IMG/VR virus record: IMGVR_UViG_2579778778_000003
DNA length: 15,371 nt
Direction: 5' to 3' (one strand)
Source: a virus
Lineage: Duplodnaviria > Heunggongvirae > Uroviricota > Caudoviricetes
Below the pieces are notes generated by a model. It ran no database searches. It had not been told where the DNA came from and saw only the letters and a program-made list of their open reading frames with translations. Made by a program: the position numbers and the translations under genes. This document shows, piece by piece, positions 71 through 10,872 of this stretch. Positions within the stretch are counted from its first letter, which is position 1, and every line of letters begins with the position of its first letter.

Positions 71-433
71 TTAACGACCTGCTGCGCGGAGTTTTCCGTC
101 AGGTTCACCGGCAAGAGTCAGTAATTGTCCCTGGTCTTCCTGCAGAATAGTCAGGCGACCACCGCGATTGACATACATCGGCGTTTCGGTGGTGTCTTCT
201 TCGGAAATTTTCCCGCGGTTAGTTGGGCGAACATATGAGAGTTTGTGTTTGATTTTCACACGGTTCTCATCAAACGGTTCGATTTCCAGATTGAGTGAGA
301 CCTTCCCTTTGGTTTTCGTGTTCATCACACCGGAAGCGACCTCACTGAGAACTGCGCCGATTTTGGTTTCAAATACGCCGCCGTCCAGCTCCCCGATAAA
401 TGCCTGCACATCAGTACTGCGTTCGCTAGCCAT
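71..433 (-). CDS. hypothetical prophage accessory protein, 120 aa, no family recognised
   Basis: ATG at 433 with GAGGAG Shine-Dalgarno 7 nt upstream (plus-strand ctcctc at 441-446); TAA stop at 71-73. The 175-aa track ORF is a 5' extension into the GC-rich spacer with no RBS. Hydrophilic, no TM segment, no motif recognised by eye. Confidence 0.5.
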   Translation of the reverse strand: MASERSTDVQAFIGELDGGVFETKIGAVLSEVASGVMNTKTKGKVSLNLEIEPFDENRVKIKHKLSYVRPTNRGKISEEDTTETPMYVNRGGRLTILQEDQGQLLTLAGEPDGKLRAAGR

Positions 434-482
434 TTTGCTGCTCCTCATCATATCGACCCTGCAAGGTCGGTTGGTTTCTCCA

Positions 483-569
483 CAAAACAGAGAAGAACAC
501 CTGCGGTGGCAGCCGCCCGGATGGATTGGGTTATGAGCCCGTCGTCCGGTGATGCTCTTCTCTGTTTTG
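483..569. repeat. long-range inverted repeat (caaaacagagaaga / tcttctctgttttg) enclosing a ~50-nt GC-rich loop
   Basis: Arm 483-500 is the reverse complement of arm 551-569 over 14 consecutive bases; it lies in a ~400-bp GC-rich non-coding stretch between divergent genes. Confidence 0.6.
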
Positions 570-840
570 CAAAAAAGGACGGTACCAGCCGGAAGCAAGG
601 GTACAAACTGGTACCGCCAGGACTACACACAGCATAAAGTTGTGGTGCCGGGTGCCTCCCGGTGCCTGGCGAAGGTTGCACACCAGGCGGGTGGGTGTCC
701 ACAGAAGGTCGACTGTCAGCCTCAACCTTAACCCGCGTGCGCTGAGCCGCATTCACCACAACGCTAAGGATTCTCTCTGGTTGAAAATACTTAGCTGTTA
801 TGTGCCTGCTTTTAGCCACATCAGGCGAGGTGGACCTGGT

Positions 841-889
841 TATTCCCCAACAACAAGGATTCGGTTAATCTGGATATCCCCAACAACAA
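841..889. repeat. two direct copies of TCCCCAACAACAA 33 bp apart, just upstream of the 928 ORF; candidate operator or regulatory repeats
   Basis: Exact 13-bp direct repeat at 844-856 and 877-889, each preceded by tat/ata. Confidence 0.55.
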
Positions 890-927
890 TAAGAGTATTC
901 AATGTGATCGCTGAATTAACGGCAGCA

Positions 928-1419
928 ATGACGGCTATTCGTGAAACAGCCCAGATTGCAAAACTAATGAACGAGGCAAAAACTCAAGCTGAAGTAAATG
1001 CGGCTATTGGTGAGCTGAACTCAAAGCTTGCGTCTATTCAGCGCGAATGCGTGTCTCTCGTTGAACTGGTGGGCTCTTATCAAGAAATAAATGCTTCTCT
1101 CAAAGCTAAAATTGCAGAATTCGAAAACTTTGAGGCTCAGACGGAAGGCTATATCCTTAACCAACTTGAGTCGGGTACTTTTGTATACTCGAAGGAGGTA
1201 ATCGTGAACGGTGGCAGCATAACCATGCATCTTTGCCCAAAATGTTTTGGACAAAAGATAGTATCGATACTTCAACCATTCCCGGTTAGCGAAGATGAGC
1301 TTTTTCATAAAAGCAGGTGCCTCCACTGTGAAAATAAGTTTCTGATGAATAAAAATCCGGATTACGTATCGCCTCCATCCATTGAGGAGTTGTCCAGAAA
1401 ACTTAACGGCAATCTGTAG
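928..1419 (+). CDS. hypothetical protein, ~163 aa: N-terminal predicted coiled coil plus C-terminal CxxC...CxxC zinc-ribbon-like domain
   Basis: ATG at 928 (alternative in-frame GTG at 904 with AAGAG 9 nt upstream); TAG stop at 1417-1419. N-terminal half is heptad-like and Ala/Glu/Lys/Gln-rich; C-terminal half has CPKC, 24 residues, CLHC. The upstream part of track ORF 640-1419 starts at TTG and is low-complexity, so is excluded. Confidence 0.5.
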   Translation: MTAIRETAQIAKLMNEAKTQAEVNAAIGELNSKLASIQRECVSLVELVGSYQEINASLKAKIAEFENFEAQTEGYILNQLESGTFVYSKEVIVNGGSITMHLCPKCFGQKIVSILQPFPVSEDELFHKSRCLHCENKFLMNKNPDYVSPPSIEELSRKLNGNL

Positions 1420-1544
1420 ATTACTACTGTTGTGGATACCGTGGCATTTGAAGAGAAGTATGGCTCCCAGCTGGAGCTGATATTTCGTTTTATCGATCGC
1501 GCACTGGCGATTGGTGTGCTGGCCTGATTTTGTGGAGAAAGTTA

Positions 1545-1928
1545 ATGCGTGATATTCAGATGGTTCTTGAACGTTGGGGAGCGTGGGCGGCTAATAATCA
1601 TGAAGATGTGACCTGGTCGTCCATTGCCGCCGGTTTTAAGGGATTAATTCCTTCAAAAGTAAAATCTCGCCCGCAATGTTGTGACGATGACGCGATGATC
1701 ATTTGCGGGTGCATGGCCCGTCTGAAAAAGAACAACAGCGATTTGCACGATTTATTAGTAGATTATTATGTAGTCGGTATGACATTCATGTCACTGGCAG
1801 GTAAGCATTGCTGCTCTGATGGTTATATCGGGAAAAGGTTACAGAAGGCTGAGGGCATAATTGAAGGGATGTTAATGGCATTAGATATCCGGTTAGAGAT
1901 GGATATCGTTGTTAATAACTCTAATTAA
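1545..1928 (+). CDS. quuD: late-gene antiterminator Q (QuuD / phage-82-type Q family)
   Basis: 127-codon ORF from ATG 1545 with GGAG 7 nt upstream; Cys-rich segment ([12 protein letters not shown]); sits where Q is found in DLP12-type prophages, upstream of nmpC and the lysis cassette. Identity recognised from memory of DLP12 QuuD, not verified by search. Confidence 0.75.
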
Positions 1929-2117: not shown

Positions 2118-3215
2118 TTAGAACTGGTAAACCAGACCTACAGCAACGATGTCATCAGTGCTTACACCGAGTGCTTTAGTGAAGTCATTTTTGTCAAGCA
2201 GGTTGATTTTGTAATCAACGAAAGTAGACATATTTTTGTTGAAGTAATAGGTTGCACCTACATCAACATATTTGACTAAGTCCTGATCGCCCCATACTCC
2301 AAGATCCTTACCTTTAGATTGCAGGTAAGCAACGGACGGACGCAGACCGAAATCGAACTGATATTGTGCAACAGCTTCGAAGTTTTGAGCTTTATTAGCA
2401 ACGAAGTGATCAGCAAATACAGTCATATTCTGGGTTTCAGAATAGGTAGTGGCCAGGTAAATGTTGTTAGCGTCATATTTCAGACCTGCGGCCCAAACTT
2501 CTGCATTTTTACCGGAAGCAAATACTTCAGGAAGAACTTTCCCTGCATTAACTTGAGTGTCGGTACGATCAGATTTCGCATAAGTTGCACCGATACCGAA
2601 TCCTTCGTATTCATAGGTAGCAGAGAAACCGAAGCCATCACCGTTACCTTCGGTGTAGTTATCGAAATCGCTACGATCGTTTTTGCCTTGGTACTGAGCA
2701 GCAAAGTTCAGACCATCAACCAGACCAAAGAAGTCGTTGTTACGATAGGTTGCAACACCAGTGGTGCGACCAGTCATGAACACATCTGTTTGGGTCCAGG
2801 TATCGCCACCGAATTCTGGCAGAACGTCAGTCCACGCACCGATGTCGTATGCTACACCGTAGTTACGGCCGTAATCGATTGAGCCGTAGTCACCGAATTT
2901 CAGGCCTGCAAATGCAAGACGGGTTTTGTCTTTGGAGGAACCTTGAGATTCAGCGCGGTTGCCTTTGAATTCATATTCCCACTGACCGAAACCAGTCAGC
3001 TGATCGTTGATTTGGGTTTCGCCTTTGAAGCCCAGACGAACATAAGTAGTATCACCATCATCTGCATCGTTAGAGGAAAAGTAGTGCTTGGCATTAACTT
3101 TCCCGTACAGATCCAGCTTGTTACTGTCTTTATTATAAATTTCAGCTGCCTGAGCAGACATCGCCATCAGTACTGATGCAGCTACAGCAGAAATTGCCAC
3201 TGTTAATTTTTTCAT
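2118..3215 (-). CDS. nmpC: outer-membrane general porin NmpC (OmpC/OmpF/PhoE family), full length with signal peptide
   Basis: 365-aa ORF; signal peptide [23 protein letters not shown] then AEIYNKD; C-terminal VYQF; AGGG Shine-Dalgarno upstream of ATG at 3215; matches NmpC as remembered. Confidence 0.93.
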
Positions 3216-10338: not shown

Positions 10339-10872
10339 CTGGCCGGAACTAATGAATTTATTGGTGAAGGTGATGCATATATTCCGCCTCATACAGGTCT
10401 GCCAGCAAACAGTACCGATATTGCACCACCAGATATTCCTGCTGGCTTTGTGGCTGTTTTCAACAGTGATGAGGCATCGTGGCATCTCGTTGAAGATCAT
10501 CGGGGTAAAACGGTTTATGACGTGGCTTCCGGCGACGCGTTATTTATTTCTGAACTCGGCTCATTACCGGAAAATGTCACCTGGTTATCCCCGGAAGGGG
10601 AGTTTCAGAAGTGGAACGGCACAGCTTGGGTGAAGGATACGGAAGCAGAAAAACTGTTCCGGATCCGTGAGGCGGAAGAAACAAAAAACAGCCTGATGCA
10701 GGTAGCCAGTGAGCATATAGCGCCGCTTCAGGATGCTGTGGATCTGGAGATCGCAACGGAGGAAGAAACCTTGTTGCTGGAAGCCTGGAAAAAGTATCGG
10801 GTGTTGCTGAACCGTGTTGATACATCAACTGCACCTGATATTGAGTGGCCTACGAACCCTGTCAGGGAGTAA
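10339..10872 (+). pseudogene. tfaD: tail fibre assembly protein Tfa, 5'-truncated (first ~14 codons replaced)
   Basis: Translation from ~10339 ([54 protein letters not shown]...EWPTNPVRE) matches lambda Tfa from residue ~15 onward; no in-frame start upstream; only an internal GTG at 10450. Confidence 0.75.

Follow-up and report, generated by a model that had tools for sequence, protein, structure and literature searches.

The question raised by this locus is whether a divergent gene pair found directly upstream of a late antiterminator gene forms a functional unit of its own. The pair lies in the first part of a 15,371-nucleotide stretch of Caudoviricetes DNA (IMG/VR virus record IMGVR_UViG_2579778778_000003), hereafter the window, and the locus (71–1527) comprises a minus-strand gene (71–433), a plus-strand gene (904–1419), a repeat-rich gap between them and a short gene remnant in front of quuD. 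An earlier note on this DNA, made from the letters alone, had regarded it as a two-gene cargo standing in the place of nin/rusA-type genes before Q, encoding two proteins that could not be placed in any family, and had proposed it as an undescribed, perhaps anti-phage, system. The answer reached here is that the locus consists, most probably, of independent units juxtaposed by a deletion: a structured leader RNA with the gene yfdP, a rip1-like defence gene and the stump of a DUF968 gene. The Rip1-family member is new, the RNA is a divergent member of the STnc100/KilS class, and yfdP is a known but uncharacterised gene.

The adjacency of the locus to quuD is the scar of a 5.9-kb microhomology deletion. 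BLAST of window positions 1380–1600 against RM10466, an intact relative (locus L002), gave two match blocks, window 1380–1438 with L002 10380–10438 and window 1431–1600 with L002 16367–16536, which share the microhomology GGATA at their overlap. Together with a comparison of the annotations of L002 and of a genome identical to the window (L001), this puts the deletion junction at 1431–1438. The gene order in RM10466 is the 171-aa plus-strand gene, cI, cro, ymfL, replication genes, rusA, kilA-N, a full DUF968 gene and quuD. Lost from the window are pL with its operators, cI, cro, the replication genes, rusA, kilA-N and most of the DUF968 gene, that is, the whole immunity, replication and nin region. 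The 3′ remnant of the DUF968 gene (1432–1527, plus strand) matches Pfam DUF968 positions 145–171 of 171 (E = 1.4e-7) and is flagged in RefSeq as a pseudogene without N-terminus; an intact DUF968 gene normally lies just before quuD. The late antiterminator Q gene, quuD, follows outside the locus at 1545–1928 (plus strand; Pfam Phage_antitermQ, E = 8.5e-54, and RefSeq). Only 11 of 5,426 complete Escherichia coli genomes matched the full 2-kb stretch, and many more match positions 1–1438 and diverge beyond. What had looked like cargo in exchange for nin and rusA before Q is thus a deletion adjacency shared by these 11 genomes.

Given the deletion before quuD, the locus truly belongs on the left side of the immunity region in an SfV/e14-like prophage. 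The survey of the site before Q in relatives, which the earlier note had suggested, led to the same place: RM10466 carries the locus left of cI and not at nin-Q. The window comes from an SfV/e14-like lambdoid prophage that is defective and sits at the argU/DLP12 site; its integrase gene (intD) has an internal stop in the identical genome L001. More generally, this is a caution for defective prophages: genes may be neighbours there through a deletion, without forming a functional module. The deletion also changed the transcriptional setting. In the intact relative, pL lies beside cI in a 228-bp gap that is deleted in the window (TTGCCA-17-TAGATT, with CTAAG..TTAG repeats); the same repeats recur at oR, between cI and cro, and phage LLS has the same arrangement of pL. 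The plus-strand gene is itself intact, but its intrinsic terminator, found at L002 10458–10477 in intact relatives, was deleted too, and therefore its transcripts could run through the DUF968 stump (1419–1545) into quuD.

The plus-strand gene (904–1419) corresponds to RefSeq WP_000559922, a "hypothetical protein" in identical genomes, and encodes 171 aa with two long N-terminal helices and a C-terminal beta/zinc-ribbon domain. The end at 1419 and the CPKC...CLHC motif stand as first reported, but the start does not: ATG 928, giving about 163 aa, gives way to GTG 904, as in the RefSeq call, because the residues before M9 (residues 1–8, MIAELxAA) are conserved in homologues. An alignment of 41 homologues showed the four cysteines of the motif (C111, C114, C139 and C142) to be invariant and the N-terminal helical region to be conserved. 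The family, phrog_1244, extends across Enterobacterales; all of its members are unnamed and none has a Pfam domain.

Searches of the PDB with the family profile gave one convincing match, 9oox, "ring interacting pore 1 (Rip1)", with E = 1e-19 and an alignment of nearly full length (query 5–156 versus 15–160 of chain 9oox_L). This entry is the Rip1 of HK446 bound to the T6 small terminase. A single-sequence phmmer comparison with 9oox gave E = 2.7e-7, and hhalign against HK446 gp37 gave a probability of 98.8% over 146 columns, whereby the four-cysteine motif aligned to CaqC...CHRC of both 9oox and gp37. The AlphaFold2 (AF2) model of the 171-aa protein (predicted local distance difference test, pLDDT, 90.6) consists of helices H2–24 and H28–79 followed by a beta domain, with a hydrophobic moment of up to 0.44 in the N-terminal helices; when it was used in Foldseek, E ≤ 0.001 was reached by 9oox_L/M only, at template-modelling (TM) scores up to 0.72. 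Moreover, tblastn matched terminase-adjacent genes in Pseudomonas phages, namely JBD30, DMS3, MP42 and D3112 (E = 2e-11 for the JBD30/DMS3-type genes), and also HkaP of HK620 and HK630. Judged by homology and by the predicted fold, the 904–1419 product is a homologue of Rip1 and so a member of a single-protein anti-phage defence family.

A review (PMC13434031) recounts the work of Patel et al. (2026, Nature 651:1060): Rip1, encoded by prophages, consists of one protein, which does no harm by itself. In that account, 12 copies assemble around the 11-mer small-terminase ring of the invader, or around its portal, after which the N-terminal amphipathic helices form a pore and the cell lyses prematurely. 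By homology, the window protein would remain inert until an infecting phage makes ring-shaped oligomers of small terminase or portal; it would then assemble around the ring, and its N-terminal amphipathic helices would form a membrane pore, whereby the infection would be aborted. The neighbours of the gene vary among the window and L002, HK446, vB_EcoM-689R2 and the Pseudomonas phages; it stands alone, with no conserved partner. In complete E. coli genomes it is present in 650 of the 5,426 (about 12%), O157:H7 included, and is always annotated as hypothetical. A common E. coli gene that is hypothetical everywhere thereby gains a concrete candidate function, Rip1-type abortive defence. Of the suspected anti-phage moron, the zinc-ribbon gene is borne out by its Rip1 homology, and the two-gene module is not. 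Just 5′ of the start codon, in the divergent region, lie two exact 13-nt direct repeats, TCCCCAACAACAA (844–856 and 877–889, 33 bp apart; repeat family D4). Klebsiella phage Kp4882-1, with a Rip1-like gene in the same place, has one of the two copies conserved; the repeats may be the binding site of a regulator.

The minus-strand gene was correctly recognized from the start: the open reading frame (ORF) at 71–433 encodes 120 aa in the ORF listing as well as in the RefSeq annotation of identical genomes (WP_000135682, "protein YfdP"). It matches phrog_204 (E = 1e-49), and clusters at 98–100% identity carry precomputed PF27127. Hence neither protein is unplaceable, one being YfdP (PF27127, phrog_204) and the other the Rip1 homologue (phrog_1244). 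The Pfam scan was empty for YfdP because PF27127 is absent from the Pfam copy used, and scans of both proteins with NCBIfam and PADLOC gave nothing useful, the PADLOC release (2023) being older than Rip1. In SfV, ST64B, LLS, Ayreon and K-12 CPS-53, yfdP heads the early-left operon yfdP-yfdQ-yfdR-yfdS-yfdT-(xis)-int. Genes of the yfdP–yfdT type are common in lambdoid early-left operons and have no known function according to a recent survey (PMC12315714). The AF2 model of YfdP (pLDDT 80.5) shows one long helix packed on a three-stranded sheet. Matches to NTF2-like and CaMKII-hub-like proteins were weak (all at E > 0.03) and were not taken as an assignment.

The spacer between the two genes (434–903) is 470 bp long. 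As previously described, it is rich in GC (up to 0.62–0.67 at 601–750 versus 0.42–0.53 in the flanks) and full of inverted repeats; the RNA of its minus strand folds at −174.7 kcal/mol (z = −4.67 versus shuffles). Read along that strand, its elements begin with a conserved 5′ hairpin, GCCUG-(AUGUGGCUAAAAG)-CAGGC (804–826), which precedes the core in 68 of 161 instances, whose stem covaries (GCCUG/CAGGC versus GCCCGG/CCGGGC) and which in LLS lies about 20 nt downstream of the −10 hexamer of pL. The structured core of the STnc100 superfamily follows at 639–762, with P1 (754–762 with 639–647), an invariant 5′ hairpin, P2, P4 and a CCGGG-AGGCA-CCCGG hairpin. It is succeeded by a conserved single-stranded stretch, UAUGCUGUGUGUAGUC (621–636), presumably a base-pairing seed or Hfq site, which is common to the window, SfV, phiES15, ST64B (with one change), LLS and K-12 KilS. 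The intrinsic terminator of the leader RNA (571–618; inverted repeat I3) has an 11-bp stem, GGCGGUACCAG/CUGGUACCGUC, a 19-nt loop and then C and U6; it forms the 3′ hairpin of the STnc100 model alignment and aligns with the annotated 3′ end of K-12 KilS. Between this terminator and yfdP there is a long hairpin with 24-nt arms (483–569; inverted repeat I1, 83% complementary, and in the minimum-free-energy fold), 96–97% conserved in many phages that differ upstream. It is a plausible site of RNase III-type processing or of translation control, as in the lambda N leader. Finally, a small stem-loop (452–471) is situated just upstream of the yfdP Shine-Dalgarno sequence GAGGAG (about 440–445).

The structure of the core is conserved by covariation. 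A motif scan of IMG/VR added 120 loci, and 32 non-redundant cores were aligned for a consensus structure of 31 pairs in five helices, 14 of which have compensatory changes on both sides, with 97.8% of cells able to pair. On none of five measures did any of 500 shuffles reach the observed value, and pairing fell to 41.5% or less when the 3′ partners were slid. The core lengths differ by numbers that are not multiples of three, which argues against coding, as in the frameshifted ORF called by PGAP. A riboswitch-like alternation between the 3′ strand of P4 and the 5′ arm of the terminator was considered and dropped, being present in the window and absent in ST64B and phiES15. By these comparisons of sequence, the minus strand of the spacer encodes a conserved leader RNA that is structured.

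A permissive search with the Rfam STnc100 model (RF02076) aligned minus-strand 792–569 to the full model (1–206, including the 3′ terminator) at 40.2 bits (E = 2.6e-7). Sub-threshold hits of 35–40.6 bits were found at the same position in SfV, ST64B, 118970_sal3, phiES15 and Kp4882-1, that is, between cI and the first early-left gene, which varies by phage. A covariance model built only from leader-type sequences (R1) scored the window at 93.5 bits and the LLS core at 54.9 bits, and it detected the genuine STnc100 of phage 933W at 67 bits (E = 2e-19), for which the Rfam model itself gives 207.7 bits. Since a model made from leader-type sequences finds the 933W RNA, both RNAs belong to one superfamily placed at different operon positions. 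There was one R1 hit per phage, always upstream of early-left genes (yfdP, kil or kilR); all leader-type loci have the core between cI and these genes and not in the late region. A Hafnia phage gave an R1 hit of 16.6 bits that falls on a tRNA gene, a hit of 16.5 bits in the pL–N leader of HK446 was gone with the filters off, and in K-12 CPS-53 yfdP is present and the RNA core absent. The 933W gene (L136 22777–23036) lies 75 nt after stx2B, with the anti-sRNA gene AsxR adjoining on the opposite strand. STnc100 has recently been linked to PasD, a small RNA (sRNA) of enteropathogenic E. coli.

KilS, an sRNA from the kilR 5′ untranslated region (UTR) of the Rac prophage, was detected by Hfq RIL-seq (ligation and sequencing of interacting RNAs) and verified by northern blot (Bar et al., 2021). 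The stretch UAUGCUGUGUGUAGUCCUGGCGG and the terminator at 571–618, 3′ of the core, align with it. In Rac itself (K-12; L133 7230–7672), the KilS seed and terminator come first and the core (132.5 bits) follows, directly before the start codon of kilR. Because this core lies beyond the KilS terminator, the annotated KilS covers only part of a longer conserved leader. Through the spacer RNA, sRNAs that go by three separate names (STnc100/PasD and KilS) become one modular family, and with Rip1 published in 2026, the locus is not the undescribed system it had been thought to be. In the K-12 e14 prophage, the coding sequence ymfH ("putative protein") overlaps a 79-bit R1 hit (L137 5255–5392; NC_000913, about 1,201,254–1,201,391, minus strand). 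Here an ORF has probably been called on top of a structured RNA, and the K-12 ymfH and PGAP "frameshifted hypothetical" calls, the latter derived from ymfH, would then be misannotations of one conserved RNA.

Overall, the following course of expression can be proposed. In intact relatives, the transcript from pL, beside cI, would run antisense through the rip1-like gene into the leader. The leader RNA, of about 200–280 nt, would comprise the 5′ hairpin, the STnc100-type core, the single-stranded seed (UGCUGUGUGUAGUC) and the intrinsic terminator. By this attenuation, the terminator would stop most transcripts, and a stable sRNA of the Hfq type, like KilS, PasD and STnc100, would result; Hfq binding, trans targets and a discrete transcript have been demonstrated for KilS only and are predictions for the window RNA. 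The fraction reading through would pass the long hairpin and allow the expression of yfdP–yfdT, xis and int.

Another function for the same RNA, with a small share of the probability, is that the core and the 5′ hairpin act in cis as a processive antiterminator RNA, a functional counterpart of HK022 put by which RNA polymerase would pass the leader terminators of lambdoid phages without N (SfV, ST64B, LLS, e14 and Rac), with the sRNA as a by-product. LLS, which is reported as lacking any N homologue and for which a put-like RNA was suspected (PMC12315714), is viable, carries the core at 54.9 bits and has two terminator-like hairpins with U-runs between pL and its first early-left gene, with the 5′ hairpin about 20 nt past the pL −10 hexamer. 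Furthermore, the core sequence is invariant, as would be expected if a protein or RNA polymerase recognized it. When homologues of three N proteins were sought upstream of the core in 128 loci, a single locus had one; N proteins being diverse, this absence is a weak test. In that sole case (L021, from IMG/VR), N of the 933W type and the core occur together on the same strand, N being about 1.6 kb upstream. 933W, a phage with N as well as Q, has the same core in its late operon, behind stx2B, and in Rac-type leaders the core comes after the KilS terminator and not before it. Inspection revealed no similarity in sequence or structure to putL/putR (a two-stem RNA of about 70 nt), and R1 gave no hit in the HK022 immunity region, also with the filters off; homology to put is ruled out by the sequence and covariance-model searches. 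Moreover, R1 found no second copy downstream of pR, where HK022 has one; its hits are on the left side only. If the antiterminator function were true, it would be a second, unrelated class of antiterminator RNA whose terminated fraction doubles as an Hfq sRNA, and it would explain how N-less lambdoid phages transcribe through the terminators of the early-left leader. The leader RNA with attenuation and a terminated sRNA remains the preferred reading of the spacer.

A far less probable view takes the spacer for a protein-coding gene in decay (a YmfH-like pseudogene, as PGAP annotates it) whose structure is incidental. RefSeq places a frameshifted hypothetical protein at 448–759 (minus strand), K-12 ymfH is annotated over the homologous e14 sequence, and phrog_33599 matches 36 residues of one reading frame. 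This explanation fails because of the covariation, with its 14 compensated helix positions and 97.8% of cells pairing; the length variation outside multiples of three, the homology to both STnc100 of Rfam and KilS, a validated sRNA, and the intrinsic terminator inside the supposed ORF also stand against it. Least probable of all is a single new accessory (defence) system made of yfdP, the spacer RNA and the zinc-ribbon protein, for although the three parts are adjacent, diverge around a structured RNA and recur as a trio in E. coli prophages such as RM10466 and in phages PhiR49_1 and PhiR29_1, they assort independently (the rip1-like gene in 650, the RNA in 2,112 and a yfdP-containing 2-kb query in 4,767 of the 5,426 E. 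coli genomes; yfdP without the rip1-like gene in SfV, ST64B, LLS and K-12 CPS-53, the first three with the RNA; the RNA with kil/gam or kilR instead of yfdP; and Rip1 homologues without yfdP in HK446 and Pseudomonas Mu-like phages), and Rip1 acts alone in the published work as that review presents it (PMC13434031).

Several observations weigh against the interpretation as a Rip1-type defence gene beside an STnc100/KilS-class leader. The window protein is only 25–29% identical to the tested Rip1 proteins, and its trigger specificity, and even its activity, are predictions by homology only. Of the profile searches and structure prediction that had been recommended for both proteins, those on YfdP (the PDB profile search and Foldseek on the AF2 model) gave no significant match to a solved structure. 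The STnc100 score of the spacer is below the Rfam gathering threshold (40.2 versus 47 bits). A consensus scan detected no sigma-70 consensus promoter in 380–1560, and since pL is deleted as well, the leader RNA may be poorly made in this strain, where its expression is uncertain.

The position of the rip1-like gene relative to the leader has parallels. Among 128 core-bearing loci, the opposite-strand gene just upstream of the core is Rip1-like in 11 and SieB in 5; sieB occupies this slot in Rac and in a Hafnia phage, and in K-12 e14 the slot is held by ymfI. The slot opposite the early-left leader is thus a recurrent site of exclusion genes such as Rip1 and SieB. Elsewhere in these prophages, SfV, ST64B, Ayreon and 118970_sal3 each have an isrK RNA and, after it, a C4 antisense RNA (a P1-type immI pair) right of cro (L003 6987–7175, L004 6732–6920, L006 6584–6772 and L008 7190–7378), in the prophage part that is deleted in the window. 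The window has an intact porin gene of 365 aa (NmpC/OmpC-like; 2118–3215, minus strand) with quuD on one side and the lysis genes on the other, as in DLP12, and a full-length Rfam match to IS009 RNA (10631–10829, plus strand; 221.6 bits), the sole hit in the window above the gathering score. Because of IS009, PasB was considered and rejected: it sits among structural genes.

In comparison with known systems, the window protein resembles Rip1 (HK446 gp37, PDB 9oox) in length (171 versus 164 aa), in having long helices at the N-terminus and then a beta domain in which four cysteines are conserved, and in being a prophage-borne single gene. The HK446 gene lies antisense in the pL operon between N and ral, an equivalent early-left slot. 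The differences are that the window protein falls in a separate clade of enterobacterial proteins (phrog_1244), annotated everywhere as hypothetical, and that its gene has lost its own terminator by the deletion. SieB/Rex-type prophage exclusion genes beside the immunity region share the slot and orientation relative to the early-left leader, although their protein family and mechanism are unrelated to those of the Rip1-like protein. The put RNA of HK022 is likewise a structured RNA in the pL leader, upstream of terminators, in lambdoid phages in which no N homologue was found; it occurs in two copies (after pL and after pR), whereas the core is single and is also found in phages with N and Q. 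With STnc100/PasD, the window RNA shares a multi-helix core including the CACCGGGAGGCACCCGGCACC hairpin, a closing helix, a 3′ intrinsic terminator and a prophage origin, and the models detect each other both ways. However, the 5′ hairpin differs in sequence (GCGGCUNAGCGCACGCGG), as does the seed, and the window RNA sits in the early-left leader, whereas the typical site of STnc100/PasD is the late region, downstream of Q or stx2 and near the lysis genes. With KilS, it has in common the homologous seed UUGCUGUGUGUAGUCCUGGCGG and terminator, and each of the two RNAs is located in the 5′ UTR that precedes the first early-left gene. The arrangement differs: the core follows the seed and terminator in Rac, where KilS is 98 nt long, and precedes them in the window, where termination would give an RNA of about 200 nt or more.

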